A stretch of DNA of 64,000 nt from Candidatus Daviesbacteria bacterium GW2011_GWA1_41_61 (GTDB lineage Bacteria; Patescibacteriota; Microgenomatia; Daviesbacterales; UBA10151), in NCBI GenBank assembly GCA_000997385.1, contig LCBT01000003.1, positions 64,892 through 128,891 of the forward strand, read 5' to 3'. Position numbers and translations under genes: made by a program. A model generated the notes under the pieces. The model had not been told where the DNA came from and ran no database searches. It saw only the letters and a program-made list of their open reading frames with translations. Positions within the stretch are counted from its first letter, which is position 1; each line of letters begins with the position of its first letter. Shown piece after piece: positions 391 through 53,772 of this stretch.

Positions 391-426
391 ATCTTTTTAT
401 TTGCTATACTTGCCCATAAAATAGTT

Positions 427-1014: not shown

Positions 1015-1323
1015 TGATTAATCTTAAAAAGGACACCCCTGTAAGGCCAGGCCTTTTATGGTTAAATATTGTTTGTTATTTTAAGATGGTACTCCCCCTT
1101 GGTAACTCCAAAAAACTCTAGACTTTTTTGATCACTGATTGTCTTTTGCTCATCTGACATCTGTTGCCAGTTTTTCCAGATTCTTTTTTGCTCTTTTATA
1201 GTTGGTTCTTTGTGGATTAACTCTATTCCTGTTTCCGCTCTCTATCTGTGTACAGGATCTTTTAATAGAGTGGTTGCCTGAGTGGGATGAAATCTTTTAA
1301 TTTTTTCTACAGTGAATGGGGAT

Positions 1324-2034
1324 TTATACATAGTCAATAGTAATTGTTTCTATAGGTAATATTTCCTCAGCTTGTTCTACAAAAGCTTGGTAAGAAAGTT
1401 GATGATTGGTTTTAGAAAAATAGCTCAGTATATCTTCTGGATGAACCCACTCAGTTTTTTTCTGCCCTAAATATTCTGGCAAAGAGGATGGCTGAGAAAA
1501 ACAGGCACGCCAGACGACCTCTGGTGAGGCTGACTTTTTCTTTTGATTTTTTATTGGGTTTTGATGAATATATGAGGTAAGATAAAGCAGTTGTGGTTCT
1601 GAGTCAACCATGACCGCTTTATAAACGTCTTGGAATAAACGACCAACACGTTCGTATTTAGTGTTGAAAAATTTAGCATATCGCAAACAGAGAGAATTCA
1701 TAAATGTATCGATACTATTTGCCGAGTTCTGCTTGATCAGAAAATGAAAATGATTTGGCATTAAACAATAGGCATTTAGCATGATTTCACCATGAAAGTT
1801 ATTTAAACGTAATAGCCTTAAAATTTTATATTTCTCCTTGTAACTAGTATTTGGATCAGATAATTTCTTTCTTAGAGCCTCTTCATTTTTAGGTAATAAA
1901 TATTCTTTAAGATAAGAAAGAAAGACAGCATAGTCTTGATCGTCTTGAAAAATAGGACGTTTTTCAACACCTCGATTATAGAGGTGATAGTAGGTATTTT
2001 CAGAATATACTTTTATGGAATTTTTTGAGGCCAT
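1324..2034 (-). CDS. IS200/IS605-like HUH Y1 transposase (RAYT-like), 236 aa with long C-terminal extension
   Basis: HUH motif (MPNHFHFLI) and catalytic-Tyr region (LTSYIHQNP) in the spacing typical of Y1 transposases. No tnpB partner. Confidence 0.75.
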   Translation of the reverse strand: MASKNSIKVYSENTYYHLYNRGVEKRPIFQDDQDYAVFLSYLKEYLLPKNEEALRKKLSDPNTSYKEKYKILRLLRLNNFHGEIMLNAYCLMPNHFHFLIKQNSANSIDTFMNSLCLRYAKFFNTKYERVGRLFQDVYKAVMVDSEPQLLYLTSYIHQNPIKNQKKKSASPEVVWRACFSQPSSLPEYLGQKKTEWVHPEDILSYFSKTNHQLSYQAFVEQAEEILPIETITIDYV

Positions 2035-2057
2035 AAATTTAGTTTGCAGTACTAGAT

Positions 2058-2639
2058 TTAGACTGTCAATAATCTAGCCTCATCAGACGACCTCTGGTGA
2101 GGCTGGTGAGGATAAGAATTAAAGATTTTGGTTTTGAGCCAGGATTTGAGGAGCCAGACTAGGGAAACTGAGATGAAGCCTAAGGCAATGCCTCCTACAA
2201 TATCCAAAGGGTAATGAACTCCGACAAAAATTCTGGCAAAGCCTACCGAAACCATAAGAATTAAAAACAACAAAGTCCATTTGGATCTGTAAAAGTAGTA
2301 ACTGAAAGCTACTGTGGCCATAGCGGTGGTATGTTCTGAAGGGAATGAGGCATCAGGCAGGTGTTTTATGAGCGGCTCTAAGTTGTAAGTGACAAAGGGG
2401 CGGGGTTCAACGTAGAAAAGGTGGAAGATTTTTATAATAATCTCAGCAAAAATTAAGCTCAGAATAATCACTAATAAAGCCTTTTTTTCTTTGACTCCTC
2501 CTTTGATAGCCAGGATGAAGATGGAAGCAATTACAAAGTAGATAAGATACTGAGCTGTAAAAACCATTAGATTGTCTAAAAAAGGGAACTTCTGGCCTAA
2601 GCTGAAAATTTGAAAAAAAAGTTCAGTATTAAAAGGCAT
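2058..2639 (-). CDS. PAP2-family phosphatase (undecaprenyl-diphosphatase/PgpB-like), membrane
   Basis: PAP2 motifs are present: EPRP, PSEHT and FARIFVGVHYPLDIVGG. Multiple TM helices. Confidence 0.75.
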   Translation of the reverse strand: MPFNTELFFQIFSLGQKFPFLDNLMVFTAQYLIYFVIASIFILAIKGGVKEKKALLVIILSLIFAEIIIKIFHLFYVEPRPFVTYNLEPLIKHLPDASFPSEHTTAMATVAFSYYFYRSKWTLLFLILMVSVGFARIFVGVHYPLDIVGGIALGFISVSLVWLLKSWLKTKIFNSYPHQPHQRSSDEARLLTV

Positions 2640-2645
2640 GGCAGG

Positions 2646-3026
2646 TTAAACAAACATCGCTTTAAGGTAAGGCAGGAAGATGATCAGTCCGACAATAGCT
2701 GAAGCAATAATAACAATGACTACAGAACCAGCTGAGAAATCTTTAGCCAGTTTAGCCTTGGGGTGGACTTCTTCGGTAAAGGAGTCAACGATAGCTTCTA
2801 CAGCACTGTTTCCCAGTTCGGCGGATAATACTAGCCCGATGAGGATGATCACAATCATCCAATCAACTCGGGAGATTTGAAAATAGAATCCAGCTAAGAT
2901 GACCAAAAAAGCTTCTATTAAACCAATTTTCCAGTTGGTCTCTGTTTTGATGGCAGAGTACATTCCCTCAAAAGCAAATCTAAAAGAATGGAAAAGCTTT
3001 TTAGTAGGTTGAGTTACCGACTCCAT
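2646..3026 (-). CDS. dgkA: Diacylglycerol/undecaprenol kinase family protein (DgkA-like)
   Basis: Motifs FRFAFEG, ETNWKIGLIEAF, SAELGNSAVEAIVD. Start moved to the internal Met (MESVTQP) because the longer ORF overlaps dus and its N-terminus is non-protein-like. Confidence 0.7.
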   Translation of the reverse strand: MESVTQPTKKLFHSFRFAFEGMYSAIKTETNWKIGLIEAFLVILAGFYFQISRVDWMIVIILIGLVLSAELGNSAVEAIVDSFTEEVHPKAKLAKDFSAGSVVIVIIASAIVGLIIFLPYLKAMFV

Positions 3027-3120
3027 AAGTTTAGTATAACACTTCTTTAATCTTTGCCAATACAATATGAGGATAGTAAATTTGGCGTAAGAATCTTGTA
3101 TAATTCTCCTAAGGGAAATT

Positions 3121-4071
3121 ATGGCTAATTTTTGGCAGAAACTAAAAAAACCGTTTTTTGCCTTGGCTCCAATGGATGATGTTACAGACACTGTCTTTAG
3201 ACAGATTATAGTAAGCTGTGGCAAACCTGACGTTTTCTTTACCGAGTTTGTCAGCGCTGATGGTTTAATCTCCTCCGGACAGCAGAAACTGCTGCAAAAA
3301 TTTCAGTTTAGCGAAGCAGAAAGACCGATCGTGGCTCAAATCTGGGGTACTAAGCCTGAGACGATGTACCAGGCTGCCATGATAATTAAAGATTTAGGTT
3401 TTGATGGGATTGATATTAACATGGGCTGCCCGGACAGATCAGTGGTCAAAAGTGGGGCTGGTGGGGCATTGATTGATAATCCCACTTTGGCCCAAGAAGT
3501 TATTTTGGCTACTCAAGAGGGGGCAGGAGGACTGCCTTTAAGTGTTAAAACCAGGATTGGATTTAAAACTGTCCAAACTGAACAATGGATCAGTTTCCTG
3601 TTAAAATTTGACCTGGCAGCTTTAACTGTTCATGGCCGGACTGTGGCTGAACTTTCTAAGGTTCCTGCTCACTGGGAGGAAATTGGCCGGGCAGCAGCAG
3701 TTAGGGATCAACTGGGTGTTAAAATTTTACTTATCGGTAATGGTGATGTTACCACTTTCCATGATGGATTAAAAAAAGCCAAGCAGTTTAAAATAGATGG
3801 GATCATGATTGGGCGGGGGATTTTTAAAAGTCCTTGGATTTTTAATCCTCAGGTAGACACTTCCCAAGTTACTCCTCAAAAGAGGCTGCAGCTTTTATTG
3901 GAACATGCCCGGCTTTTTGATGAGGTCTGGCAGGGTTCTAAAAACTTTGCCATCTTAAAAAAGTTTTTTAATTCTTATGTTAGGGGTTTTAAAGGAGCCA
4001 GTGATTTAAGAATAAAACTGATGGAAACTAAAACTTTAGCGGATGTTGAACAGTTGGTGGGCAACCAGTAA
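3121..4071 (+). CDS. dus: tRNA-dihydrouridine synthase
   Basis: Dus TIM-barrel motifs: LAPMDDVTD, IWG..PE, DINMGCP, KSGAGGALI. Confidence 0.8.
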   Translation: MANFWQKLKKPFFALAPMDDVTDTVFRQIIVSCGKPDVFFTEFVSADGLISSGQQKLLQKFQFSEAERPIVAQIWGTKPETMYQAAMIIKDLGFDGIDINMGCPDRSVVKSGAGGALIDNPTLAQEVILATQEGAGGLPLSVKTRIGFKTVQTEQWISFLLKFDLAALTVHGRTVAELSKVPAHWEEIGRAAAVRDQLGVKILLIGNGDVTTFHDGLKKAKQFKIDGIMIGRGIFKSPWIFNPQVDTSQVTPQKRLQLLLEHARLFDEVWQGSKNFAILKKFFNSYVRGFKGASDLRIKLMETKTLADVEQLVGNQ

Positions 4072-4101
4072 TTTGGTATAGTTAAAATACACCTGCCCTC
4101 T

Positions 4102-6771
4102 TTGGATTTGGGAAGGTATCTTTCAATGATTGGAAACACCTTTGGATTATCTCAAGATGAGGTTCGTTTAAGACTTAAGGAGCACGGGCCTAATGAAATC
4201 AAAGGTACTCGTAAGACTCACCCGCTGCAAATTTTTTTAAGACAAACTAAAAAGAACCTAATTCTCTATCTGTTGCTTTTTGCCTCTTTGATCTCTTTTG
4301 TTGTCGGAGAAACTGTAACTGCCGTGACTATTGTATTGGTGGCTGCTATGGTTGTGACTGTCTCTTTTATCCAAGAATATCGGGCAGAGAAGGCTATCCA
4401 GGCTTTAAAACAAATGGTGGTACCGATATCGACGGCAATAAGAGGGGGGAAAGAGACGGAAGTGCTATCTTCCCAGCTTGTTCCGGGGGATATAGTGACT
4501 CTCCGCAGCGGAGAGAAAATTCCCGCCGATTGTTTGTTGATCGAAGAGAATAATTTAAGAGTTGATGAATCGGTTTTAACCGGAGAATCGCGGGAAATTT
4601 CTAAAAAAGCTGCCCGCAGTGAGCATTCTTACGGTGAAGAAAATATGATTTTTATGGGTACTTTTGTAATTGCTGGCCGTTGCCGGGCAAAAATCGTCCA
4701 CACCGGGATGAATACCAGGTTTGGAGCTATCGCTAGTATGATCTCGGAAACTGAGAAAAGTTTGCCTCTTCAACAAAAGCTTAATAAGATCGCCCGTTTT
4801 ATGGTGATAGTGGCAGTAGTGGCCTCTTTCTCAACCGGCCTTTTAATGCTTACTAGGGCTGAAGTTTTAAGCTACCAATCTTTAACTAATATCTTAATTT
4901 TAACCCTGGCCCTGGCTGTTTCTGCTTTTCCAGAAGGTTTACCGGCAGTTTTGATCACTACCTTGGCGGTAGGAGCCCGGCGGATGGCTAAGAAAAACGC
5001 TATTGTCAACCGTATGTCCATCATTGAGACACTGGGTGAAACGACAGTTATTTGTACCGATAAAACCGGCACTTTAACCAGTGGCGAGATGACAGTTAAA
5101 AAGATCTATCTTAATGGAAAGATGGTGCAGGTTTCAGGAAGCGGTTATGAGGCTGCGGGGGAATTTTCTGTGGCTGAAAGAAGCTTTGATCCTAAAAAAA
5201 ATCCAGGGCTTACTTTGTTGTTGAAGACAGCGGTTATCTGTAATGACAGCCGGATTAAAAGGACCGGTGAGGACCACCAATATAAGATTAGCGGTACCCC
5301 GACTGAAGGAGCCTTAATGATTTTAGCCGCCAAAGCCCATCTTTTCCGGGAGGACTTATCTTATCTTAGAGTAGAAGAGATCCCTTTTACTTCCGACAGA
5401 AAGATGATGTCAGTGCTATCTAAAGAAAAAGAGGGTAACTTTATCTATGCTAAAGGAGCTCCGGAAATTTTACTGGCTAAATGCCATTGTCAGCAGATTA
5501 ACGGTAAATGTGTCACTTTAAATGAAGCCCAAAAAGAGGAGATCCTTAAAGAAAATGCCCAGTTAAACCATCAGTCTTACCGAACTTTGGCTTTAGCCTA
5601 CAAAAAAGTTGAGCGGCTGGATAAAGATTACAGCGAGGACGGATTGATCTGGGCGGGATTAGTGGGGATGGAAGATCCTCCCCGGGAAGAAGTGGCCCAA
5701 GCCTTACAACTTTGCCAAAGCGCTGGTATCAGTGTCAAAATGGTTACCGGTGATCATCAAGAAACTGCTTTAGCCATCGCTTCCCAGATAGGCTTATCGG
5801 GGAAGGCCGTTGAGGGAACTGATTTAGATCAACTAACGGATGAGGAGTTAGCTAAGGTAGTAAACCAAATAACTATTTTTAGCCGGGTCAGACCGGAGCA
5901 TAAGCTGAGAATCGTTAAAGCTTTACAAGCTATCGGTGAGATAGTTACCATGACTGGTGATGGAGTCAATGATGCCCCAGCTTTAAAAGAGGCTCATATC
6001 GGGGTAGCAATGGGGAAAAACGGTACTGATGTCTCCCGATCTGTGGCTGATCTTACTTTAAAGGATGATAACTTTGCTACTATTGTCGAGGCAATTAAAG
6101 AGGGCAGATCTATTTTTAACAATATCAGGAAATTTGTAAGCTATCAGCTGGCATGCAATTGGGCGGAAATTTTAATACTTTTTATAGGGGTCTTGCTCTC
6201 TCCATTTTTAGGATGGCAGGCCCCGCTTCTTTTGGCCCTGCAAATCCTTTTTATGAATTTGGTGACAGATGATCTTCCGGCTATTACTTTAGGATTAAAC
6301 CGTACTTCCAAGGATGTAATGCGTATCAAACCCCGCCGGAAGGCTGAAATATTTAACAGACCGCTTTTTTATATGACCATTGGGGTAGGGGTATTAATGG
6401 CTTTTTTGACTTTAACATCCTTTTATATCTCCTTTAATATTTTAGGGCAGGGCTTGGAAGTAGCTAGAACGACTGCTTTGGTTACCTTAATTTTGTTGGA
6501 GATAGCCGGAGCTTTCAGCTACCGCTCCTTCAGGCAAAAGGTTTTAACCAGATCTCCTTTTGCCAATATTTATCTAGTTTATGCTTCTGTCATCTCCGTC
6601 ATCGCTACTTTAGTGATTGTTTATTCCCCTTTAAGTCATGTCTTTGAGACAACTTCTTTGGACAGTTTCAGTTGGTTTATAGCTTCTCTGGCAGCAATTA
6701 TACTGGTGATTATTTTAGATTTAGTGAAGAATCTTGATATTAGCAGAAGTGTTACTCAGACCACCTCTTGA
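4102..6771 (+). CDS. Cation-transporting P-type ATPase (Ca2+/Mg2+ type, P2)
   Basis: CTDKTGTLT phosphorylation motif, TGDGVNDAPALK, TGES actuator motif, about 10 TM segments. TGA stop. Confidence 0.9.
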   Translation: MDLGRYLSMIGNTFGLSQDEVRLRLKEHGPNEIKGTRKTHPLQIFLRQTKKNLILYLLLFASLISFVVGETVTAVTIVLVAAMVVTVSFIQEYRAEKAIQALKQMVVPISTAIRGGKETEVLSSQLVPGDIVTLRSGEKIPADCLLIEENNLRVDESVLTGESREISKKAARSEHSYGEENMIFMGTFVIAGRCRAKIVHTGMNTRFGAIASMISETEKSLPLQQKLNKIARFMVIVAVVASFSTGLLMLTRAEVLSYQSLTNILILTLALAVSAFPEGLPAVLITTLAVGARRMAKKNAIVNRMSIIETLGETTVICTDKTGTLTSGEMTVKKIYLNGKMVQVSGSGYEAAGEFSVAERSFDPKKNPGLTLLLKTAVICNDSRIKRTGEDHQYKISGTPTEGALMILAAKAHLFREDLSYLRVEEIPFTSDRKMMSVLSKEKEGNFIYAKGAPEILLAKCHCQQINGKCVTLNEAQKEEILKENAQLNHQSYRTLALAYKKVERLDKDYSEDGLIWAGLVGMEDPPREEVAQALQLCQSAGISVKMVTGDHQETALAIASQIGLSGKAVEGTDLDQLTDEELAKVVNQITIFSRVRPEHKLRIVKALQAIGEIVTMTGDGVNDAPALKEAHIGVAMGKNGTDVSRSVADLTLKDDNFATIVEAIKEGRSIFNNIRKFVSYQLACNWAEILILFIGVLLSPFLGWQAPLLLALQILFMNLVTDDLPAITLGLNRTSKDVMRIKPRRKAEIFNRPLFYMTIGVGVLMAFLTLTSFYISFNILGQGLEVARTTALVTLILLEIAGAFSYRSFRQKVLTRSPFANIYLVYASVISVIATLVIVYSPLSHVFETTSLDSFSWFIASLAAIILVIILDLVKNLDISRSVTQTTS

Positions 6772-32538: not shown

Positions 32539-32952
32539 ATGGCTATGTTTACTTCAACACCTACTTCTTCCCCGGGAAAGATTTTAATTGTCGACGATGA
32601 TGATGATATCAGAAATATCTACAAAGATTATTTAACTGCCAATGGGTTTAAGGTCGAGCTGGCAACAAATGGTCAGGAAGGACTGTCCAAGATTCTTCAA
32701 GGAGGATATGATCTGATACTTTTAGATATTATGATGCCCAAAATAGATGGGTTGGGGATTTTAAGAAGGTTAAAGGAAAAACCTTTAAATCAAAATGTTT
32801 ACAATGGTCCCATTGTGGTTTTATCAGCCTTAAGGCAGGATGAAGTTTACAATGAAGCTTTAAGGTTAGGGGCCAAGGGCTATATTGTTAAATCAGACAT
32901 TACCCCCAAAGATCTATTAGATAAAGTAGTAGAGCTCCTCAAAAAACCCTAA
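32539..32952 (+). CDS. Single-domain response regulator (CheY-like receiver)
   Basis: KILIVDDDDDI, phospho-acceptor Asp in LILLDIMMP, KGYIVK. Confidence 0.8.
   Translation: MAMFTSTPTSSPGKILIVDDDDDIRNIYKDYLTANGFKVELATNGQEGLSKILQGGYDLILLDIMMPKIDGLGILRRLKEKPLNQNVYNGPIVVLSALRQDEVYNEALRLGAKGYIVKSDITPKDLLDKVVELLKKP
32854..32952 (+). repeat. 99 bp direct repeat, copy 1 (last 99 nt of the response-regulator gene including the stop)
   Basis: Identical at every position to 37065..37163. Confidence 0.85.
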
Positions 32953-37064: not shown

Positions 37065-37163
37065 GAAGCTTTAAGGTTAGGGGCCAAGGGCTATATTGTT
37101 AAATCAGACATTACCCCCAAAGATCTATTAGATAAAGTAGTAGAGCTCCTCAAAAAACCCTAA
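37065..37163 (+). repeat. 99 bp direct repeat, copy 2 (orphan copy of the response-regulator 3' end)
   Basis: Identical to 32854..32952. Not attached to a receiver-domain ORF. Confidence 0.85.
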
Positions 37164-38394: not shown

Positions 38395-39369
38395 ATGTTT
38401 ATGGCAGAAAGTTCCTACAAAAAATTATTAGAAGTTTCCAGGATAGTTGGGTTACCGATAAAAAAGATTCTGGATATTCTCTATTATCTTGGCAGTGGTA
38501 AGAGGATATTAAATAACAACTTATTGCAAACAGTAGGAGTGTCTAGAAATGTTTTAAATCAGGTTAAACAACAGCTAGAAGAATTTTTTATCCAGAAGAG
38601 CCAATTTACTGTGTTATCTAATCAAGCTACTACTATAGCTAAAAAAATATTAGGGGAAAGTTATACCCCGGAAGAGAAATTGATAAACATATCTTTAGCT
38701 AAAAATACTCAGCTTTTATCACTCATATCCCATTCTCAACCTCAGCCTATCAGGGGATATGATCAATTCTTAGCCGATTCTGAGACGGTGGTTAAAAGAG
38801 CTGCTTTAATGGATTTTTTTGCTGATATTGAAGGGAAAAGAATCCTGTTTTTAGGAGATGATGATTTTACCTCTGTTGCTATTGCTTTTTATAGAAAAGC
38901 TCAGACAATTACTGTAGTAGATATCGATAAGAAAATTTTAGATGGTATTCAAGAAATTTCAGACAGCTCATCTTATCAAATTACGACCAAGCCGTATGAT
39001 GCTAGAGAAAAATTATCTCCAGAGTTGTCAGGAAAATATGACATTGTTTTTACTGATCCTCCTTATACGAGAGAAGGTATAAGCCTATTTTTATCTCGGG
39101 CTGTGCAGGCTTTAGATCCTACTAATCAGGCTGGGAGGATTTATTTTTGTTATGGTAACAGTGACAGAGCTAAGGAAAGATATTTACCCATTTATGAAGT
39201 TATTATTTCTTCAGGACTGATGATCAGATGGGTTTTTGATAAATTCAACCGTTACAGTGGGGCAGAGTCCATAGGCAGTGCCAGCAGTTTATTTATTTGT
39301 GATGTTACCCCCAAGACAAAACCAAAAATTACAGGAGAATATAAAGGAAATATTTATACAGAAAGGTAA
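38395..39369 (+). CDS. DUF43/BpsA C-terminal-domain-like protein (putative aminopropyl-/methyl-transferase) with N-terminal wHTH
   Basis: RILFLGDDDFTSVA, DIVFTDPPYT motif. Confidence 0.55.
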   Translation: MFMAESSYKKLLEVSRIVGLPIKKILDILYYLGSGKRILNNNLLQTVGVSRNVLNQVKQQLEEFFIQKSQFTVLSNQATTIAKKILGESYTPEEKLINISLAKNTQLLSLISHSQPQPIRGYDQFLADSETVVKRAALMDFFADIEGKRILFLGDDDFTSVAIAFYRKAQTITVVDIDKKILDGIQEISDSSSYQITTKPYDAREKLSPELSGKYDIVFTDPPYTREGISLFLSRAVQALDPTNQAGRIYFCYGNSDRAKERYLPIYEVIISSGLMIRWVFDKFNRYSGAESIGSASSLFICDVTPKTKPKITGEYKGNIYTER

Positions 39370-39371
39370 TG

Positions 39372-39500
39372 CTTTTTTAAAGATCTGATTTCTTGAAGTG
39401 TACCATACATTAATACTTGGTGGACAGTATCCGGTGATCTAATATCTGCTGTGGTTGAATACCACATACGCAGGTGGTTTTGTACCTCACAGCAGAGTAG
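39372..39500 (+). repeat. Repeat R2 (99 bp) fused to an XRE-tail remnant, copy 1
   Basis: 39372..39470 is identical to 51823..51921. 39471..39500 encodes QVVLYLTAE*, matching the 3' end of the XRE gene at 43941..43970. Confidence 0.75.
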
Positions 39501-39576: not shown

Positions 39577-40698
39577 ATGGTTGAGAGTTATACTGACACT
39601 CCAATTTCATTGTCTCCAGTCATAAAAGCAGTCTCTGGTGGTTGTAACTTACGCTGTAATTACTGCTTTTATTCTGGTAATCAGCCAGAAATAAAAAGGA
39701 TGAGTGTTGACACCCTAGAAGCTCTTACTAAACATTTATTAGAGTCTCCATCGAAACATTTTAATTTTATTTGGCATGGCGGTGAGCCAATGCTATTAGG
39801 AATAGAATTTTATGAGAAAGCGTTAGAAGCACAAACGAGGTACAAAAGATCAGATCAAGATATCCGTAATTCTCTCCAAACGAATGCTACTCTTATCAAT
39901 CAGGGATGGGTAGACTTTTTTAAAAGAAATAGTTTTGGTGTAGGAGTAAGTATTGATGGTCCTGCTGAGCTTCATGATTTAGTGAGGGTACAGACCGATG
40001 GAAGGGGGTCTTATGATCAAGTGGTATCAGGAATCAATCAATTGAAGGCAGCTAATATTTCCTTTGGTGGGATAGCGGTCGTAAATAGGATAACTGTCAA
40101 CCATCCAGAGACTATGTTTGCTTTTATCAAAGATGGAGGAATACCAATGGCTTTAAATCGGTGTAATGCTAACACTGATGATCCGGAAGAGGTTAGAAAA
40201 TTAGCGGTTGGTCCAGCTGAGTATAACGCATTTTTATTAAAGATATTTGATCTATGGATCAATGAAAATAATCCAGCGATCAAAATCCGTCCTCTTGATG
40301 AATTAGTTAGGGCAACCTTAGGCTATCATACAGAGAGTTGTAGCTTTTTAGGCCAGTGCGAAAGATATTTTACAGTTGATTTTAATGGCGATGTGTATCC
40401 TTGTGATGAGTTCCTTAATGATAGGTATCTATTGGGGAATATTAAAAGACAGGCAGTAAATGAGCTTTGGCAAGGTGGGGATTTTAGAAGATACTATTTA
40501 GGAAGGCGTGGTGTAATTATTAACTGTGAGGGGTGTGAGTGGATGGATGTGTGCAATGGCGGATGTATAAGAGATTGGGAAGGATCTAAAGGTATGTTTA
40601 ACCCGAAAGAAATTAGCTTTTGTGAAGCAAAAAGGTCGTTATTTCAAACTATAAAATTAAGATTGTCAGAGTTGGGATATACTAGAGGTATAATCTAA
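39577..40698 (+). CDS. Radical SAM/SPASM-domain enzyme (anSME-like peptide-modifying maturase), cassette 1
   Basis: CNLRCNYC radical SAM cluster motif, GGEP. C-terminal SPASM cysteines (CSFLGQC..CDEF...CEGCEWMDVCNGGC). Confidence 0.85.
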   Translation: MVESYTDTPISLSPVIKAVSGGCNLRCNYCFYSGNQPEIKRMSVDTLEALTKHLLESPSKHFNFIWHGGEPMLLGIEFYEKALEAQTRYKRSDQDIRNSLQTNATLINQGWVDFFKRNSFGVGVSIDGPAELHDLVRVQTDGRGSYDQVVSGINQLKAANISFGGIAVVNRITVNHPETMFAFIKDGGIPMALNRCNANTDDPEEVRKLAVGPAEYNAFLLKIFDLWINENNPAIKIRPLDELVRATLGYHTESCSFLGQCERYFTVDFNGDVYPCDEFLNDRYLLGNIKRQAVNELWQGGDFRRYYLGRRGVIINCEGCEWMDVCNGGCIRDWEGSKGMFNPKEISFCEAKRSLFQTIKLRLSELGYTRGII

Positions 40699-40723
40699 TT
40701 ATAAAAGAAAGAAGGTGAAAAAT

Positions 40724-40957
40724 ATGCTAAGAGAAGCAGAAACGGCAGCATCTACTGACGCAGAAACATTAGATCTAACAGCTGTTGTACCTGTTGAACC
40801 GGTAGAGCGAAGTGTCAGAGAACCAAACTTGGTCATTGAAGAGGTGCTAAAAGGATCTAAGAAGCTTATTACACTTTGGTCGGGAGATCATAGCGATCAT
40901 GTAGATGTTAACTTTCCTTATGGTGACTATGCTGATAGATGGAGTGATAAAGCTTAA
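40724..40957 (+). CDS. Small acidic precursor-like peptide (77 aa), cassette 1
   Basis: GAAGGTG ribosome-binding site. Helical acidic N-terminal region. C-terminal core WSGDHSDHVDVNFPYGDYADRWSDKA with repeated aromatic/His-x-Asp triplets. Confidence 0.5.
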   Translation: MLREAETAASTDAETLDLTAVVPVEPVERSVREPNLVIEEVLKGSKKLITLWSGDHSDHVDVNFPYGDYADRWSDKA

Positions 40958-41046
40958 AACTTTATCAATATTATATAATCAGTATTAAAGTATTTAGCAT
41001 CTTAGGGTATTATATATTTTCATAAAACGGAAGTTTATTTTGAGTA

Positions 41047-42033
41047 ATGACTATTAAATTTCAGATTTCTGAAACAGCTAATTTTTGGCATTTTGTGTCA
41101 AACTTAGTTAGTTGGCATGATAGTGTCAGGCTCTATTATAGAGATTATTGGTTAGATCAAACAGGTGATTTTACAGAAATAGAGGAAAAATGTTTAGAAA
41201 AGTTGAAAGACTTTTTCAAAAAGTATACATATGGGGAGAATTACTGGGGCAAAGTTTTTTTACTAGGAAATAATAATGTTTGGGAAAAAGCCGGGCAAAA
41301 ATTTACTGCATCTGAGATTGAATTATTAAAAGAGGCTTCGGAAGTTTTTTACCGTCGTTTTAGAAAAATTTGGGATATTGATCAGCATTTATTGAAAGTT
41401 TGGAAAATACGTTTAGAAAAGACTAGTAAAAGGTTTGTGACAGAGTCCCTTATTCAGGATTTGGATGTATTTTTTAATTACAAACAACCCCTAAAAAGCG
41501 TCACAGTTTTTCTTCTAATGTGTGAGAAAAGAAATGATCCGGCAGGGGGAGGAGCAAATTTAGGTAAAGGATATCTTACTTTGGAGGTCTCAAGAGCTGA
41601 TTATGATGCTATAAGGCCAGCCTGGCTACTATTTTGGCATGAACTGACACACAACCTCTGGCAGGAAGATAGCTCTACCTACCAACAATTAAGAAGAGAC
41701 TTCTCTGATCAAATGAAGAATGAAGGTTTAGACGGGAAAATTCTGCAAATACCTACTTCCAGGATTATTAATGAGGTAGTGGTTGATTCACTTTTCCCTA
41801 AGGGTTATCTTGCCAAGAAACATTTCGACTTTCCAGTTGAGTTAATTTTTAATCGTTTCGGGGAAGGTTCTAAAAAGCGGTTTAAGGTGGAGGATTGGCA
41901 TTACTATTTTGCCTATACTTTAAAGGATTTAGCTAAAGATTATATAGAAAATGGGAAGGCTATTGATATGGATTTTTTTAAAGAGATAAAAAAACAATAC
42001 ATAAGATTTTCTAAAGATTTCAGGAGAAGCTAA
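41047..42033 (+). CDS. HExxH-motif protein (putative Zn metallopeptidase), cassette 1
   Basis: WHELTHNLW. No other recognised domains. Confidence 0.45.
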   Translation: MTIKFQISETANFWHFVSNLVSWHDSVRLYYRDYWLDQTGDFTEIEEKCLEKLKDFFKKYTYGENYWGKVFLLGNNNVWEKAGQKFTASEIELLKEASEVFYRRFRKIWDIDQHLLKVWKIRLEKTSKRFVTESLIQDLDVFFNYKQPLKSVTVFLLMCEKRNDPAGGGANLGKGYLTLEVSRADYDAIRPAWLLFWHELTHNLWQEDSSTYQQLRRDFSDQMKNEGLDGKILQIPTSRIINEVVVDSLFPKGYLAKKHFDFPVELIFNRFGEGSKKRFKVEDWHYYFAYTLKDLAKDYIENGKAIDMDFFKEIKKQYIRFSKDFRRS

Positions 42034-43163: not shown

Positions 43164-43970
43164 GTGCAGAGAGAGTGTAATACACTTTTTAGCCAATTTA
43201 TGTTAACAGCTACTTTAGGAAGGTTAATTAAAGATCATAGATTAAGAAAAAGGCTTTCACAGCTGGAAATTTCTTTAAGGATAGGTTGGAGGGATACCAC
43301 CAGGTTATCTAAGATAGAGCAGGGAAGGGTGGGGAAACCTCTTAGGAAGACAGTAGATAAGATCATGGAGGCTCTAGATTTAAATAAGCAGGAAAGAGGA
43401 GAGTTTTTACTAGTTGGAGGATATCTACCCACAGATGAGGAAATTAAAAAGGTTATCAAACTGGTAAAAGAAAGAATAAACACTTGGCCTTACCCAGCCT
43501 ATTTGTTAGATTTCTCCTGGAGAGTTCTGTGTCTTAATCAACATACTATTGATATCTTTAAGTTACCTTCTGCTCTAAAGAGCATTTCTTTTAAAAAAGC
43601 TCCAAATCTACTGGAATTCCTTTTTTCTCCCAAGGAGGTTCTACCGGTTAAAATAGAAAAAGGTGATGATGACAAATCAGTCCAACCTTTCCCGATAGCA
43701 CAAGTTGCTCAATTTAAAGTAGAGCAAAATGGCAGGGATAATGAGAAGTGGTATAAAGATTTAATCAAAAAGTTGATGCAAAATGAGCAATTCCGTCAGG
43801 TTTGGCCCAAAGTAGATCCCAAACAGTATCACAAAAAGTTGTTAGATTATGAATATAAAGTAATTACTTGGCCAGACAAAAGTCACAAAACCTTTAGGTT
43901 TCATATTTTCACCTCCAGATTAATCCAAGACCAAAGGTTCCAGGTGGTATTATACCTCACAGCAGAGTAG
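43164..43970 (+). CDS. XRE-family HTH regulator with C-terminal domain
   Basis: HTH LSQLEISLRIGWRDTTRLSKIEQG. Its last about 29 codons (43884..43970) form the gene-tail repeat found at four other sites. Confidence 0.65.
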   Translation: MQRECNTLFSQFMLTATLGRLIKDHRLRKRLSQLEISLRIGWRDTTRLSKIEQGRVGKPLRKTVDKIMEALDLNKQERGEFLLVGGYLPTDEEIKKVIKLVKERINTWPYPAYLLDFSWRVLCLNQHTIDIFKLPSALKSISFKKAPNLLEFLFSPKEVLPVKIEKGDDDKSVQPFPIAQVAQFKVEQNGRDNEKWYKDLIKKLMQNEQFRQVWPKVDPKQYHKKLLDYEYKVITWPDKSHKTFRFHIFTSRLIQDQRFQVVLYLTAE

Positions 43971-44144: not shown

Positions 44145-44654
44145 TTAGGTGGAAATGAGTTGAAAACTATCAGTTAAAAGTGTACTCATCTCTTTCTGGT
44201 AAAGGTAGATGTTTTCAAAGAAGTTTAAACAGGATTCTTTGAATTTAGGGAAAGTGTCATAGTATTGGTTGTAGGTAACTTTCTGATGAAACAGTCTCCA
44301 TAACCTCTCAATCAAGTTTAAATTGGGTGAATATGGTGGCAGGAATTTAGGGATTAACCTTGGATGGTATCTTAGATAGTTTTGGACCTGTCTTGAGTAG
44401 TAATACCTGGCATTGTCCCAAATCAGATAAATCCTGCCTGTTGGGTGCTTTTCTAATAGTTGGTCCAGCAGATTGATGGTGGAAGTTGAGTTAATCCTTA
44501 AATCTTCCCTGATGATTACATCATGGGTTTTAGCATTTAAGGCCCCATTTAAGTTTAACCTGTCCCTGCCTGTATTAGACTTAATTAGTTTATCAGTCCC
44601 CTTTAGTATCCAACCATACGAAGGTCTGGTATTATGCTGGGGATGAGTTTGCAT
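44145..44654 (-). CDS. IS630-family transposase DDE-domain ORF (+1 frame relative to orfA)
   Basis: LIWDNARYYYS, LPPYSPNLNLIERLW. 23 nt overlap with orfA. Confidence 0.7.
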   Translation of the reverse strand: MQTHPQHNTRPSYGWILKGTDKLIKSNTGRDRLNLNGALNAKTHDVIIREDLRINSTSTINLLDQLLEKHPTGRIYLIWDNARYYYSRQVQNYLRYHPRLIPKFLPPYSPNLNLIERLWRLFHQKVTYNQYYDTFPKFKESCLNFFENIYLYQKEMSTLLTDSFQLIST

Positions 44655-45174
44655 CCAGGAAGTAGATCTGGTCAGCTGCTTCTAACTGATTTTTAAGTTT
44701 TAAGTACTCATCTAAAAAGGCTCGCTGTTTGTCTAAATCAGCTTTGGCTGGTACAAGCTTGGGTTTCTTGTAGACAAAGCCTAACCTGTGGAGGAGTTTA
44801 GTCATACCAATAACTGAGTATTTAATGTGATATGTGGATTTAATATACCGGGCTACTTCTTTAGCTGTTAAGTAAATATGCTCACCTTCTGCTAAATGGT
44901 TTTTGAGTTCCAGCTCTTGGGTTTTGGTAAGTCTTGGATGACCACCAGTGTAGTGGAACTGCAATAATCCACTCAGTCCCTCTTGCTTAAAACTTTTAAC
45001 ATATCTCCTGATGGTTGTCTCGTCTAAAAGCAGTGCAGCAATTATCTGGGGATATGTGAAGCCTCTATGAACCATGAGTATGGCTTTGATTCTATCAGCC
45101 AACCTTTTGTCTCTTACCTGTTTATGTGCCTTTCTCAAAACCAGCACTTCTTCTTCAGTTAAAATTTCGGGCAT
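44632..45174 (-). CDS. IS630-family transposase N-terminal (HTH) ORF
   Basis: Helix-turn-helix region and HYTGGHPRL. Confidence 0.7.
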   Translation of the reverse strand: MPEILTEEEVLVLRKAHKQVRDKRLADRIKAILMVHRGFTYPQIIAALLLDETTIRRYVKSFKQEGLSGLLQFHYTGGHPRLTKTQELELKNHLAEGEHIYLTAKEVARYIKSTYHIKYSVIGMTKLLHRLGFVYKKPKLVPAKADLDKQRAFLDEYLKLKNQLEAADQIYFLDANSSPA

Positions 45175-45255: not shown

Positions 45256-45528
45256 TTAGGTACATACAATGACACAATTGCAGTTACAATTAAAACAGCC
45301 AGCATCACAATCACAGCTGCCTGCATAATCTATACCTCTATCTGTTCTTCCCAGTGCCTGGACGAATGGTTGAGTAAAAATAGATTCAAATTCCATAGTT
45401 CGTCTCTGACTTTGCAATTGGGTTTGTTCCGCTAACAGTTGGTTAGCTGCAAATTCATATTTTGGTGTTAACTGCTCATTTTGCAATTGGGCTTGTTCCA
45501 AAGATTCGTTCTCGACTTCCCGCAACAT
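45256..45528 (-). CDS. Cys/Asp/Asn-rich precursor-like peptide (90 aa), cassette 2
   Basis: GGAAGGAGG ribosome-binding site 8 nt before the ATG. N-terminus MLREVE.. resembles cassette 1 peptide (MLREAE..). C-terminal core GSCDCDAGCFNCNCNCVIVCT. Confidence 0.6.
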   Translation of the reverse strand: MLREVENESLEQAQLQNEQLTPKYEFAANQLLAEQTQLQSQRRTMEFESIFTQPFVQALGRTDRGIDYAGSCDCDAGCFNCNCNCVIVCT

Positions 45529-45564
45529 TAAAATCACCTCCTTCCGATATTATTATCTTAGCAT

Positions 45565-46287
45565 TTAGTTAATTTGCTTTATAACTTCTAGAAAATCCTT
45601 GTTGTAGACATGCCTAAATTTTTTATAAAAGATTATATTATTACATCTATCACCCAGTGACGACAGAAAATATAAAAGTTGAAGTTTGCCATATTTTTTA
45701 ATTAAGTAACTTACTGCTCTCCAACTGTGCCAATAGCCCTGTATAGATGGTTTGGCTACATTCTTACTCCATTGTTTTGATGTTCCTAGCAAGAAAATCG
45801 TCCGGGGGTTAAAATTGATACTAAAGTTACTAGCTAAGTTTATCTGGCCAGCAACAAAACAGGCCAAACCCTCATCAAACCATTGCGGTCTATAACCTTT
45901 ATGTATTGCACTGGTAAATAAGTGGGCAATCTCATGGCAAAGGATCTTTTTAAACTCATTTTTATTATGATTACTCACTTTCTCAAATACTTCCGGGCTA
46001 AATATACAAATCTGGCTTTGGGTCGATGGGTCAGCACGACCTACCAGCCAGGGTGGAGTTTTATGGCCAGATAGATCATCCATTTCTTGGCGTGTATATA
46101 ATAAAACCAAATCGACTCCATCAATTTCCCTTTTGAAGAACTTCACATTTCTTCTGTAACATTGCTGCAACATTTTTTTTACTTCACCTATAAAATTGTC
46201 ATCAAATGAATAATAGATTGTACCTTTGGCGGTAGTACTTAAGCTGAAAAGCTCTCTTTTTTTGTTTTTAATCATTAATTGTCTCAT
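45565..46287 (-). CDS. HExxH-motif protein (putative Zn metallopeptidase), cassette 2
   Basis: CHEIAHLF. Lies between the radical SAM gene and the peptide. Confidence 0.5.
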   Translation of the reverse strand: MRQLMIKNKKRELFSLSTTAKGTIYYSFDDNFIGEVKKMLQQCYRRNVKFFKREIDGVDLVLLYTRQEMDDLSGHKTPPWLVGRADPSTQSQICIFSPEVFEKVSNHNKNEFKKILCHEIAHLFTSAIHKGYRPQWFDEGLACFVAGQINLASNFSINFNPRTIFLLGTSKQWSKNVAKPSIQGYWHSWRAVSYLIKKYGKLQLLYFLSSLGDRCNNIIFYKKFRHVYNKDFLEVIKQIN

Positions 46288-47647
46288 TAACTGGTTGAAT
46301 AAAGCCTAGTTTGAATAGTCTAAAGAAAAATTCATTCGGGGCTTCTGTCAAACTAAATTGGTCTTGTATTTCCTTAATTGTAAACGGTCTCTCCCAAAAT
46401 CTTACTTCTTTTAAAGCGATATAACCTAACTTGTCAAGAAACAGGGAAGCTCTAGGACCGTTAGAGACAATACCTCCAAAATCCTCTGACCTAAATTTTA
46501 TCTTCTTCCCCAACACAAGTTTTCTATCCAGAAGATCCATAGGAGAAAAAGTCTCAGACTGATTTTGTGGCTGATTATAGACACCCTCTGGGCTTGTTGC
46601 CAAAGGATCCATACCATCAATCCCGTTACAATATTTTGCATTCATACGGCAACCGGCTCTACAGCTAGGAAAATATTCGCATTCAGATAAACATCCTTTT
46701 GGAATACGGGAACCGTCTCTCCAATCCGTCATTCTCTTCCAGATATCTTCAAGAGTTTCATTAAATATATTTCCATAAACTTCATCGGCGACAGTACAAG
46801 GCCTAACATTTCCTTCAGCGGAAATCGCACAAGTTGCAACTCCAGCAGCACACTTTCTCTCAATAAATTTTCGATAATACCCCCAATTCCCAAGAGCACA
46901 TAAGGGATATGAGATTAAGCTGTCGACATGCATTCCCTCCTCCGCTTCTAGAAACAATAAATCGTCTAACATTTTCTTATAATCTTCCTTATTCAAATCA
47001 ATTTCATCAAAGTTGATACCACCCATACATGGAGAAACTTTAGTTGCCGAAAATGAAGAGACTCCCTTACTTTTTACTAACCTACCAGTATCTAGCACTT
47101 GATCCTTATTTAAAGCGGAGACTACCATATTTGCAGTGATATCTAAGCCTTCTCCTACACAAATATCAATTCCTCTAACGGTTTGTTTAAAAGATCCTTT
47201 TCTTTGTGTTATCGTATCATGTAAGGTGCTATTACTTGCATGCAGAGAGGCAAGTATTGAGTCTACCCCGGAAATTTTTAATTCTCTGGCTAATTCAGGA
47301 GTTATTAGAGTTAGATTACTATTTATTGAGCATGCAATATCGTATTGTTTAGCTAATTTTATTCCTTCTAATAATTTTCTGCTTTTAAGTAACGGCTCTC
47401 CTCCTGTGAAGGTAAGTGCTATAATTTGATGCTGAGCAAGATACCTGATGGTGGTTTCAAGTCCAGTCAGGGATAAGGAGGAATTAGAGTAATCCTTATT
47501 CAAGTCCCGAAATTTGTCCCCCCTCCAGTAGTTGTAGCAATGTACGCAATAATTGTTACACCTAGAGGTTAACTCAATCTGAGCGTCAAGTGGCCCGCTA
47601 AGAGTTTTATACACATCTAGCGAGGGAACTAGAGGATTTCTTTCCAT
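46268..47647 (-). CDS. Radical SAM/SPASM-domain enzyme, cassette 2
   Basis: CNNYCVHCYNYW radical SAM motif, SPASM cysteines (CAAGVATC...C..CEYFPSCRAGC). Start at the internal Met with an AGGAAAAG ribosome-binding site. Confidence 0.85.
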   Translation of the reverse strand: MERNPLVPSLDVYKTLSGPLDAQIELTSRCNNYCVHCYNYWRGDKFRDLNKDYSNSSLSLTGLETTIRYLAQHQIIALTFTGGEPLLKSRKLLEGIKLAKQYDIACSINSNLTLITPELARELKISGVDSILASLHASNSTLHDTITQRKGSFKQTVRGIDICVGEGLDITANMVVSALNKDQVLDTGRLVKSKGVSSFSATKVSPCMGGINFDEIDLNKEDYKKMLDDLLFLEAEEGMHVDSLISYPLCALGNWGYYRKFIERKCAAGVATCAISAEGNVRPCTVADEVYGNIFNETLEDIWKRMTDWRDGSRIPKGCLSECEYFPSCRAGCRMNAKYCNGIDGMDPLATSPEGVYNQPQNQSETFSPMDLLDRKLVLGKKIKFRSEDFGGIVSNGPRASLFLDKLGYIALKEVRFWERPFTIKEIQDQFSLTEAPNEFFFRLFKLGFIQPVNETIND

Positions 47648-47864
47648 AATCTTTTCCTGGGCTTCTACGCGAATACTATCATTAATAAATGGTACTGTCA
47701 AAAATTTTGGTTTAACACCAGCAGGGGACAATACCAGAAATTATCAGCAGCAATGAATGGTATTTGATAGTTGTATTTTGACAAACATGGAGATGTTATG
47801 TTATTAGTAAGGATGTAATTTAAGAAGGAAGAAAGAGTAGCTAATTTGATGTTAATTTAAAAAG

Positions 47865-49244
47865 ATGGGCATTGAAAACACTAAAGTAAATGTAGATAGC
47901 TTACCGAATGCCCCCAAACAGATATACAAAACTCTTTCCGCTCCAGTTACAGCTCAATGGGAATTAACAGATTGGTGTAACCAACGATGCTTCCATTGTT
48001 ATAATTATTGGCGAAATGATAATCCAGAAACTGTTGAGCCTTCCGATAGTGTGGGGCAGATTCATCATACAATAGCAAGGGAAATTGTGGCTAATCATGT
48101 TTTTAGCGTGACAATTACAGGTGGAGAACCACTACCTTTTATCAAAAAATATGCTGAGTCAATCGGATTACTCAGAGATGCAGACGTTGATTTAAAGGTT
48201 AATTCTAACTTAACTTTGTTTGACCGAGAGTATGGCCATATTCTTAAGGATTTGGGTATTACTTCGTTACTAACATCTGTAATATCTTATAACCCTAATA
48301 CTCACGATCGTTTATGCTGTAGTCCTGGAAGTCATAAAAAAATAAGCGATAATATCAGAAGAGCTTTGGATATGGGATTTAGAGTTAGCCCAAATATGGT
48401 TGTAAGTAAACTAAATTTAGGTGATATCGAGGGAACTGCAAAGTATGTAAAAAGCCTGGGACTAACTTCTTTCTTGGCAACCAAAGCGACTGCCCCTCCG
48501 AATTGTCCAGATTTTAGCCAATATTCATTATCACTAGAAGAATTAAAGATTATGTTTAATTTGTTGAAGAAAGCAGAAGCAGAGTATGGCGTATCTGTTG
48601 ATTCACTTGAGCCTTACCCTATGTGTCATTTTCAAGACCACGATCAATTAAAGGCCTTTGGGCAACGTGTTTGTGGGGCAGGTAAATCAATATGTACAAT
48701 TGGATTTGACGGAGCTGTAAGGCCTTGTTCTCACGCAGATCAAGTTAGTGGAATAATATCGGATCAAAACAGCTTTAAAGAGTTATGGTTGAAGCTACGG
48801 CCATGGCGTACTGATGAATATTTGCCTGAAGAATGTAGTAAATGTAGTATAAGAAATGTATGTTACGGTGGATGTAGAGTTGAAGCTTGCGTAGTTAATG
48901 GAGATTTAAAGTCTAGGAATCCCTATTGTGATCCAGAAAATATTCCAAATATTAACTCCTTGGAGCTAACATGGAAAAACGATGATGTTAAATTTAATCC
49001 GGGAAGTGCTTTCCAATTTAACCCACATTTAAAATATAGAGGGGAAGAGTTTGGGGGTATACTATTTTTATCTCCTAAAGCATGGGTGGGAGTTAATGAA
49101 TATATACTGACTTTCTACAAGAAAAGAAAAGACTCACCCTTTGTTGTTAAAGACTTATCTGATGATATTGGTGTTGAAAGAGGAAGTTTGGTTGAAACGA
49201 TGCATTTGTTATACAAAAAAAATATAATTGAAGAAAGGAGGTGA
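47865..49244 (+). CDS. Radical SAM/SPASM-domain enzyme, cassette 3 (paralogue of cassette 2 enzyme)
   Basis: CNQRCFHCYNYW motif, SPASM cysteines (CGAGKSIC...CSKCSIRNVCYGGC). Confidence 0.85.
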   Translation: MGIENTKVNVDSLPNAPKQIYKTLSAPVTAQWELTDWCNQRCFHCYNYWRNDNPETVEPSDSVGQIHHTIAREIVANHVFSVTITGGEPLPFIKKYAESIGLLRDADVDLKVNSNLTLFDREYGHILKDLGITSLLTSVISYNPNTHDRLCCSPGSHKKISDNIRRALDMGFRVSPNMVVSKLNLGDIEGTAKYVKSLGLTSFLATKATAPPNCPDFSQYSLSLEELKIMFNLLKKAEAEYGVSVDSLEPYPMCHFQDHDQLKAFGQRVCGAGKSICTIGFDGAVRPCSHADQVSGIISDQNSFKELWLKLRPWRTDEYLPEECSKCSIRNVCYGGCRVEACVVNGDLKSRNPYCDPENIPNINSLELTWKNDDVKFNPGSAFQFNPHLKYRGEEFGGILFLSPKAWVGVNEYILTFYKKRKDSPFVVKDLSDDIGVERGSLVETMHLLYKKNIIEERR

Positions 49245-50326: not shown

Positions 50327-50413
50327 CACAAAACCTTAAGGTTCCATATCTTTACTTCTAGATTAATCCAAGACCAAAGATTTCAGGTGGTGCTATGTTT
50401 GCCAGCAAGGTAA
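50327..50413 (+). repeat. XRE gene-tail repeat, copy B (orphan 3' fragment)
   Basis: Encodes HKTLRFHIFTSRLIQDQRFQVVLCLPAR*. Homologous to 43884..43970 with mostly synonymous differences. Confidence 0.65.
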
Positions 50414-51822: not shown

Positions 51823-51978
51823 CTTTTTTAAAGATCTGATTTCTTGAAGTGTACCATACATTAATACTTGGTGGACAGTATCCGGTGATCTAATATCTGC
51901 TGTGGTTGAATACCACATACGTCTAGATTAATCCAAGACCAAAGATTCCAGGTGGTTTTGTATTTACCAGCAGAGTAG
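51823..51978 (+). repeat. Repeat R2 (99 bp) fused to an XRE-tail remnant, copy 2
   Basis: 51823..51921 is identical to 39372..39470. 51922..51978 encodes SRLIQDQRFQVVLYLPAE*. Confidence 0.75.
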
Positions 51979-53685: not shown

Positions 53686-53724
53686 ATAATAACCTAGATT
53701 TTCTTAAAAAGCTATTCTGAACTA

Positions 53725-53772
53725 GTTTCAGACCAAAGGTTCCAGGTAGTATTATATTTGCCAGCAGAGTAA
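53725..53772 (+). repeat. XRE gene-tail repeat, copy D (orphan)
   Basis: Encodes VSDQRFQVVLYLPAE*. Confidence 0.6.

Follow-up and report, generated by a model that had tools for sequence, protein, structure and literature searches.

A candidate cyclophane-type peptide modification cassette with an anSME-like radical SAM enzyme in Candidatus Daviesbacteria

Which substrate is served by a radical S-adenosylmethionine (SAM) enzyme that resembles the anaerobic sulfatase-maturating enzymes (anSMEs) and is encoded directly beside a small, cysteine-free peptide? The question is raised by a three-gene cassette in a 64,000-nucleotide stretch of contig LCBT01000003.1 (referred to here as the window), which comes from a groundwater member of Candidatus Daviesbacteria in the candidate phyla radiation. 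The cassette occupies positions 39577-42033 of the window, where three co-directional genes on the + strand encode the radical SAM enzyme, a small acidic peptide, and a protein with an HExxH motif. From comparison of these genes with their relatives, we consider it probable, though well short of certain, that the cassette is a triceptide/dynobactin-like system for a peptide that is made on the ribosome and altered after translation (RiPP), in which rings are closed between aryl groups and Asp C-beta atoms. The product would most likely be a peptide closed into several rings, of a kind so far uncharacterized. The parts of the cassette are as follows.

39577-40698, + strand: predicted radical SAM/SPASM peptide maturase of 373 amino acids (Pfam, NCBIfam, and PDB matches)
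40712-40718, + strand: Shine-Dalgarno-like AAGGTGA, located 5 nt ahead of the ATG of the peptide gene (read from the sequence)
40724-40957, + strand: putative precursor peptide gene, 77 amino acids plus stop, Cys-free (open reading frame and homologues)
40826-40858, + strand: putative leader recognition motif NLVIEEVLKGS, residues 35-45 (12-peptide alignment)
40877-40954, + strand: putative core WSGDHSDHVDVNFPYGDYADRWSDKA, residues 52-77 (shuffle tests and homologue comparison)
41047-42033, + strand: HExxH protein of 328 amino acids, unmodeled family, zincin-like predicted fold (sequence and alignments)
41638-41652, + strand: HELTH metal-binding motif, H198-E199-x-x-H202 (sequence; invariant in alignments)

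The stop codon of the radical SAM gene lies 25 nt before the peptide start, and 89 nt separate the peptide stop from the start of the HExxH open reading frame (ORF). In a scan for promoters and terminators, shuffled sequence gave counts at least as high as the real sequence. Copies of the peptide and enzyme without any difference were found on about 20 metagenome contigs (19 for the peptide), and the database name of the peptide is simply hypothetical protein, Candidatus Daviesbacteria GW2011_GWA1_41_6x.

The aromatic-x-Asp pattern of the peptide

The initial annotation had singled out the 77-residue ORF as Cys-free and as carrying five aromatic/His-x-Asp triplets plus NFPY, and this was confirmed by ORF calls and by shuffling. 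The 26 C-terminal residues, WSGDHSDHVDVNFPYGDYADRWSDKA, hold NFPY and the triplets HSD, HVD, YGD, YAD, and WSD (H56-D58, H59-D61, Y66-D68, Y69-D71, and W73-D75). When the whole peptide was shuffled 20,000 times, five [WYH]-x-D triplets were never reached; shuffling only the 27-residue core, which keeps its Asp- and aromatic-rich composition, produced them in 0.055% of cases. When all six frames of the 64 kb were examined, the peptide core was the only place with at least four such triplets in 27 residues. The triplets all end in Asp, and no aromatic-x-aromatic triplet with Trp or Phe was found in the core. No Pfam or NCBIfam model matched the peptide.

Conservation of the pattern across loci is stronger evidence than any single-sequence statistic. 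The neighborhoods of radical SAM relatives (35 to 57% identity) and of HExxH-protein homologues were compared, with the relatives drawn from Candidatus Daviesbacteria, Woesebacteria, other Patescibacteria, one locus with archaeal-type neighbors, and others. A radical SAM gene with a small peptide gene, usually accompanied by an HExxH gene, was found at nine loci (L006, L007, L009, L021, L024, L027, L028, L029, and L031) and, with the HExxH gene missing, at two more (L025 and L026). The same arrangement was seen at L018 and L022, where the radical SAM genes are cut by contig ends. Adjacency of enzyme and peptide was kept at more than 10 independent loci. The gene order was radical SAM, peptide (...LKGSEKFLGWSGDHSDHIDHNMPYGDYIDSHRDQA), and HExxH protein in the Patescibacteria locus L006, and radical SAM, HExxH protein, and peptide (...HPDYDDWSEYSDGPYWGDGDHWADSTYDPP) in the Woesebacteria locus L007. 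A complete Woesebacteria chromosome (L009/L010) encodes the peptide ...EEDWDDDWDDSWSEHSDGPSWGDGDQWSDSTHNP, and peptides of the same kind occur at L018, L021, L022, L024, L025, L026 (the locus with the archaeal-type neighbors Hjc and HFX_2341), L027, L028, and L029. The more distant triad at L031 has a peptide with WDN repeats, the Trp-x-Asn type of characterized cyclophane peptides.

Across these peptides, Asp was the constant element and the aromatic residue drifted. When 15 cores were pooled, Asp stood at position +2 from Trp, Tyr, or His 80 times versus 24.2 expected (z = 14.8); the second-largest offset for Asp was -1 (z = 3.7), and +1, +3, and +4 were depleted. The triplet donors were W (34), H (30), and Y (27), the acceptors were D (80), N (6), and E (5), and the middle residue varied among S, G, A, T, V, I, and others. 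The number of triplets per peptide was five in the window and up to eight elsewhere. Since part of the 15 peptides came from a motif-guided scan, the test was rerun on the seven from independent gene calls with a fixed C-terminal stretch of 30 amino acids; it gave 30 versus 9.2 expected (z = 8.6; 0 of 3,000 shuffles). Homologues of the window peptide were found at 79% and 68% identity, and in two close homologues His and Tyr were exchanged at the triplet aromatic position with every Asp kept. Constancy of the triplet Asp through such swaps was seen in P0002, P0003, and L006. In an alignment of 12 peptides, D68 was invariant, D75 was kept in at least 90%, and a P-(Y/W)-x-D center was conserved, as was a leader block, (I/V)(I/V)-x-x-(I/L/V)-L-(K/E/A), common to Daviesbacteria, Woesebacteria, and other loci. 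In fuller form the block reads hydrophobic-(I/V)-(D/E/N/S)-x-(I/L/V)-L-(K/E/A). The N-terminal two-thirds of the 77-residue product would be a putative leader, with the block as its candidate recognition element.

A fixed +2 Asp combined with a drifting Trp, Tyr, or His is how a substrate of three-residue aryl-to-C-beta crosslinking would be expected to look. The triceptide-type pattern proposed at the outset stood as regards its spacing, which is specific and conserved in both the pooled and the gene-called sets. The enzyme reached the cutoff of no cyclophane-synthase model. The combination of residues had been called unusual; this holds for the uniform Asp acceptor, whereas His donors and mixed donors have precedent (PMC11499958 and PMC12912966).

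The strict register also bears on whether the small ORF is a substrate at all. It could instead be a His/Asp-rich metal-binding or regulatory peptide, or a peptide processed only by the HExxH protein. A highly acidic His/Asp-rich core would bind divalent metals, and the HExxH family (604 cluster representatives; see below) may exceed the radical SAM clade and has one member that lacks a radical SAM neighbor. Simple chelation, however, needs no strict +2 register, the 25-nt spacing is tight, and adjacency to the radical SAM gene is conserved even where the HExxH gene is missing (L025 and L026). We consider it very unlikely that the peptide is not a substrate of the enzyme.

Two of the compared loci carry further peptide-related genes. 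On the Woesebacteria chromosome (L009/L010, positions 1-4822), three ATP-grasp genes and a gene for a 7TM_transglut protein precede the cassette divergently, and this group may be a separate graspetide-like peptide modification system. In Amycolatopsis (L030, positions 1998-2940), a radical SAM relative of 39% identity, for which DarW scores highest among the peptide-maturase models and anSME slightly higher still, is preceded by two paralogous precursors of 136 to 140 amino acids with Trp-rich W-x-R/W-x-x cores, YWQDGWGRETSWGRGWDRN and HEWRQSWDRINHWERV. These look like a neighboring, different precursor family.

Relationship of the radical SAM enzyme to anSMEs

The window enzyme matched the Pfam models Radical_SAM (8.5e-20) and SPASM (4e-10). 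It has a CX3CX2C motif (C23, C27, and C30) and eight C-terminal cysteines, the count needed for two auxiliary clusters, which align to C255, C261, C276, C317, C320, C326, C330, and C348 of anSMEcpe. Its architecture is anSME/DynA-like, without an N-terminal RiPP recognition element (RRE) extension. In the PDB the enzyme was closest to anSMEcpe (4k36-39; E = 4e-59), followed by ChlB, a triceptide synthase (9gm3; E = 9e-25).

NCBIfam scores were judged against the curated cutoffs of the models, and the window enzyme reached none of them. The bit scores, with cutoffs in parentheses, were as follows.

anSME TIGR03942: 316.4 (349.45)
anSME NF010321: 242.5 (441)
DynA: 238 (450)
DarW: 210 (650)
anSME NF010308: 197.3 (484)
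GrrM/OscB: 181 (310)
DarE: 175 (650)
YhhB: 172 (445)
AmcB: 160 (425)
PapB: 135 (340)
FxsB: 124 (370)
QhpD: 98
XyeB: 95 (450)

The description of the enzyme as anSME-like held in that TIGR03942 was its best model, yet it fell below every anSME cutoff. Ten radical SAM relatives were also under all anSME cutoffs (261 to 314 bits for TIGR03942), and for P0039, whose neighbor peptide is also rich in aromatic-x-Asp, the best model overall was DynA, at 323 bits. The comparison with XYE-type maturases that had been suggested did not turn out in their favor: the enzyme is not XyeB-like (95 versus 450 bits), and its nearest peptide maturases are DynA, DarW, and GrrM/OscB. On the strength of the NCBIfam scores and the PDB neighbors, we place the enzyme in an anSME-like lineage that apparently also gave the maturases of dynobactins, daropeptides, and cyclophanes. 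Ma et al., writing in Angew. Chem. in 2021 in a paper cited as reference 18 by PMC11499958, reportedly placed cyclophane-forming enzymes and anSMEs in one lineage and proposed their common ancestry.

These scores raise the possibility that the enzyme is a true anSME that forms formylglycine on a sulfatase encoded elsewhere, with the small ORF unrelated to it. The top NCBIfam and PDB matches are indeed anSMEs, and the cysteine set and the PCD motif have the same layout. All three anSME cutoffs were nevertheless missed by the window enzyme and by the ten relatives, and the aromatic/Asp peptide tracks the enzyme across 35 to 57% identity. The NCBI name of the relatives is only 'radical SAM protein'. 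Gln64 of anSMEcpe (FQGGEP) was replaced by His (WHGGEP) in 11 of the 11 non-anSME sequences aligned, 9 of which had a peptide neighbor found. The initial annotation had seen no cognate sulfatase in the window, and the search agreed: the sulfatase motif C/S-x-P/A-x-R...TG was absent from the six-frame translation of the 64 kb, and Pfam identified the ten largest remaining ORFs of the window as other proteins, with no sulfatase among them. We regard a true anSME as very unlikely.

Proposed mechanism and points that weigh against it

In the favored triceptide/dynobactin-like reading, the 77-residue product would be a precursor whose leader carries the conserved (I/V)(I/V)-x-x-(I/L/V)-L motif. The radical SAM/SPASM enzyme would cleave SAM reductively to give a 5'-deoxyadenosyl radical, which would take the C-beta hydrogen of every Asp at position +2 from a Trp, Tyr, or His. 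The resulting Asp C-beta radical would add to the aromatic ring two residues upstream, and aromaticity would be restored once an electron had passed to the auxiliary clusters and a proton had been lost. Each event would yield one three-residue cyclophane and a change of -2 Da, so that up to five rings could be formed here with the carboxylates kept. The HExxH zincin-like protein would then remove the leader or tailor the ringed peptide.

These steps are modeled on characterized relatives (HaaB, YhhB, HtkB, and MicB), and by this analogy we infer the Asp C-beta as the site of attack, an aryl C-C bond in preference to a C-N or C-O bond, how many rings form, and the role of the HExxH protein. DynA, DarW, GrrM/OscB, DarE, and YhhB make aromatic-to-C-beta links across three residues, and abstraction of an Asp C-beta hydrogen by SPASM enzymes has precedent in PapB and QhpD. 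Rings from His C2 to C-beta are formed by HaaB, YhhB, and HtkB (PMC11499958), and MicB alone handles the mixed Tyr/His/Phe motifs YSK/HAS/FTK (PMC12912966).

Several observations weigh against this proposal. As regards the enzyme, the best-scoring model is an anSME (about 33 bits under its cutoff), the catalytic-base position (PCD; D277 in anSMEcpe) is kept, and the cutoff of every named cyclophane-synthase model was missed. As regards the peptide, no Asp was present at position 3 among the characterized triceptide motifs compared, the leading conserved W-S-G-D is out of the three-residue register, and the commonest middle residue is Ser (32 of 91 triplets), so that a Ser-directed, anSME-like oxidation of the middle residue is possible. 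As regards the third gene, it is missing at L025 and L026, and an HExxH homologue at L023 has no radical SAM neighbor.

The prominence of Ser and of DynA also bears on whether the enzyme might modify the peptide in some other way: by His-N to C-beta bonds of the dynobactin kind, by ether links of the daropeptide kind, or by ring-free chemistry at Asp or Ser (beta-oxidation giving formylglycine or aminomalonate, epimerization, or decarboxylation). DynA is the best peptide-maturase model for the window enzyme and the best overall for P0039, and of the links formed by DynA one is C-C and the other N-C. Ser is favored as the middle residue of the triplet, and Ma et al. are said to have found formylglycine and aminomalonate produced in vitro by cyclophane-forming enzymes. 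The interchange of Trp, Tyr, and His with a fixed +2 Asp, on the other hand, argues for a generic acceptor role of the aromatic ring; the aromatic-x-aromatic motifs of the daropeptide ether are essentially absent from the window core; and the middle residue, because it is variable, is an unlikely target. We rate these other chemistries as quite possible but less likely and retain aryl-to-Asp-C-beta ring closure as the preferred reading.

The HExxH protein

The third gene, which the initial annotation had left uninterpreted, encodes an HExxH protein with a zincin-like predicted fold that is a conserved part of the system. Ten members gave no Pfam match to E = 1 and no NCBIfam match to E = 10. 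W197, H198, E199, H202, and E243 were invariant in the family (alignments A1 to A3). An exhaustive hidden Markov model search brought up 604 cluster representatives, of which 184 scored E <= 1e-30, and lengths among the 150 matches listed were 172 to 407 amino acids, too short for a radical SAM fusion. Profile scans of genomes and of metagenomes gave 4 and 9 loci, respectively, numbers limited by a word-pattern prefilter.

Foldseek comparison of the predicted model with the PDB gave no match at E <= 0.001, and a PDB sequence-profile search with the family returned spurious repeats only and found neither 8s5f nor 22ob. The predicted fold was zincin-like, and matches to M1 peptidases and to ChlH were about equally weak. 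By its sequence, the protein does not belong to the alpha-ketoglutarate (alpha-KG)-dependent HExxH beta-hydroxylase family (IPR026337/TIGR04267 type). The protein may act as a leader peptidase or in tailoring; the modeled fold does not separate peptidase from oxygenase. PMC12636437 describes the HExxH domain of ChlB as adding beta-hydroxyl groups to Asp and His once the precursor bears cyclophanes. With a core rich in Asp and His, this parallel is striking.

A candidate for a conventional leader peptidase also exists. In L006, the next gene after that for the HExxH protein is a Peptidase_MA_2 gene, whose homologue in the window (45565-46287; 28% identity; E = 6e-30) may serve this cassette as well. 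At L023 (positions 1286-3984), no radical SAM gene was found within 3 kb of the HExxH-family member in either direction; an ORF of 83 amino acids, very acidic and ending in ...DDPDWAADTYDAIEQDEAD, lies 1.5 kb away on the opposite strand. The family may thus not be strictly tied to radical SAM partners.

Genomic context

The cassette stands at the start of a 12.45-kb segment that begins 106 nt upstream of the radical SAM gene and is bracketed by perfect 99-nt direct repeats (39372-39470 and 51823-51921). The cargo of the segment includes both of its radical SAM/peptide cassettes, together with an IS630-type transposase (44145-45174), a gene of the NUDIX type, a regulator resembling MmyB, and the toxin-antitoxin-like genes NTP_transf_2/HEPN and AbiEii. 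Metagenome contig L004 joins position 51921 to 39471 through the repeat and a 113-nt element, a junction that reflects either a circular or tandem form or an assembler misjoin. The GC content is 34 to 37% across roughly 32 to 54 kb, compared with 40 to 43% upstream at 4 to 32 kb, and in L006 the cassette adjoins a backbone block that is found 15 kb away in the window. The cassette looks mobile because of the repeats, the transposase, the L004 junction, the GC shift, and the moved backbone block in L006. L004 was withdrawn as an independent genomic context, as its join runs through the perfect 99-nt repeat.

The second cassette on the segment (45256-49244) comprises a Cys-rich peptide of 93 amino acids (...SCDCDAGCFNCNCNCVIVCT), the Peptidase_MA_2 gene, a radical SAM/SPASM gene of 487 amino acids (46268-47731), and a divergent radical SAM gene of 459 amino acids (47865-49244).

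Directly upstream of the 99-nt repeat and the first cassette lies a gene for a BpsA_C-type (branched-chain polyamine synthase-like) transferase (38395-39369). This BpsA_C-like SAM-dependent methyltransferase was considered as a cassette member and rejected, as it is not conserved beside the radical SAM gene at other loci; the upstream position is taken by a histidine kinase in L006, secretion genes in L007, a kinase-methyltransferase fusion in L024, and an LCM methyltransferase in L025.

Other repeats were also noted. A second perfect 99-nt direct repeat (32854-32952 and 37065-37163), whose first copy is the 3' end of a response-regulator gene (32539-32952), brackets 4.2 kb with a divergent pair of HisRS/HisZ-like genes and a gene for a polyprenyl synthetase. 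The exact length of 99 nt in both pairs could be an assembly k-mer effect; an independent Joint Genome Institute (JGI) contig, L001, carries both pairs. Three histidyl-tRNA-synthetase-like genes lie within 10 kb, in what is a small genome (25348-26556, 32984-34357, and 34427-35827), and two of them, divergent and in the 4.2-kb block, are just below the hisS cutoff or HisZ-like. Intergenic repeats of about 86 nt with 63 to 80% identity occur at 43884-43969, 50327-50412, 51892-51977, and 53686-53771. The related 113-nt element is found just upstream of the radical SAM gene in L001 and L004 and is absent from the window. A small element with a mobile or regulatory role may underlie this 113-nt/86-nt repeat family.

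Implications

The features that set the system apart are the near-uniform Asp at position 3, the many motifs, a product that would be strongly acidic, the new HExxH family, and hosts in the candidate phyla radiation. Such bacteria have minimal genomes and presumably live on other cells, with few natural products attributed to them. In the open-access literature, no link of cyclophanes to candidate-phyla-radiation taxa was found, and published networks of about 5,400 cyclophane synthases could hold the clade unnamed. The cassette would offer a concrete target for expression, one small enzyme and one 77-residue peptide, and would bear on whether cyclophane-forming radical SAM enzymes accept an acidic residue at position 3, on whether a single active site can process Trp, Tyr, and His donors at least five times in a row, and on the role of an HExxH family of 604 cluster representatives that has no Pfam model. 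The clade also marks where anSME-type annotation should stop, because relatives reach scores within roughly 10% of the anSME cutoff.

A broader proposal, which we hold to be unlikely, is that the cassettes represent an unrecognized class of modified peptides found in candidate-phyla-radiation bacteria and possibly also in DPANN archaea and some other bacteria. The anSME/DynA-like radical SAM enzyme would staple five to eight aromatic residues onto Asp C-beta atoms to give a rigid, polyanionic multicyclophane rich in His and Asp, the HExxH protein would be a nonproteolytic, ChlH-like tailoring enzyme, and the product would be a metal chelator or an episymbiont host-interaction factor.

Comparison with known systems

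With anSMEcpe and AtsB the enzyme has in common how the cysteines of the three clusters are arranged, as well as an Asp following the third SPASM Cys. Unlike an anSME, it has WHGGEP in place of FQGGEP, no sulfatase in the window, and a small-peptide neighbor that is conserved in its clade. PapB (ranthipeptides) and QhpD (amine dehydrogenase maturation) abstract hydrogen from Asp or Glu side chains to form crosslinks. In those systems the partner atom is a Cys sulfur, whereas the window peptide is Cys-free.

Like DynA, DarW, and DarE, the window enzyme is an anSME-like single-chain radical SAM/SPASM protein with no RRE domain. The links made by those enzymes join an aromatic residue to C-beta and span three residues, with His as a donor in dynobactin. 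Their cores are short and basic or neutral, carry one or two rings, and target BamA, and the systems occur in Gammaproteobacteria with DarBCD-type exporters. The window cassette, in contrast, has no transporter and belongs to the candidate phyla radiation, and its core is polyacidic, with at least five aromatic-x-Asp motifs and, unlike daropeptides, no aromatic-x-aromatic ether motif. For comparison, the dynobactin core is WNSNVHSYRF (PMC10125368).

The HExxH partner recalls ChlB-ChlH and SjiB-SjiH, for which PMC12636437 describes an HExxH partner of a cyclophane synthase. It differs from ChlH and SjiH in being a separate gene of a different, unmodeled sequence family; the alpha-KG-dependent HExxH beta-hydroxylases (IPR026337) ChlH, SjiH, BpmH, and PflC are among the closest known systems.

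The resemblance to triceptide systems (XyeB, GrrM/OscB, FxsB, YhhB, HaaB, HtkB, ChlB, and MicB) lies in a radical SAM/SPASM enzyme encoded beside a precursor in which aromatic-X-X motifs recur. Triceptide donors are known to include His, Tyr, and Trp (PMC11499958) and may be mixed in one peptide (PMC12912966). The difference lies in position 3, which is Lys, Arg, Ala, Ser, or Asn in the characterized motifs compared and almost uniformly Asp in peptides of the window type.

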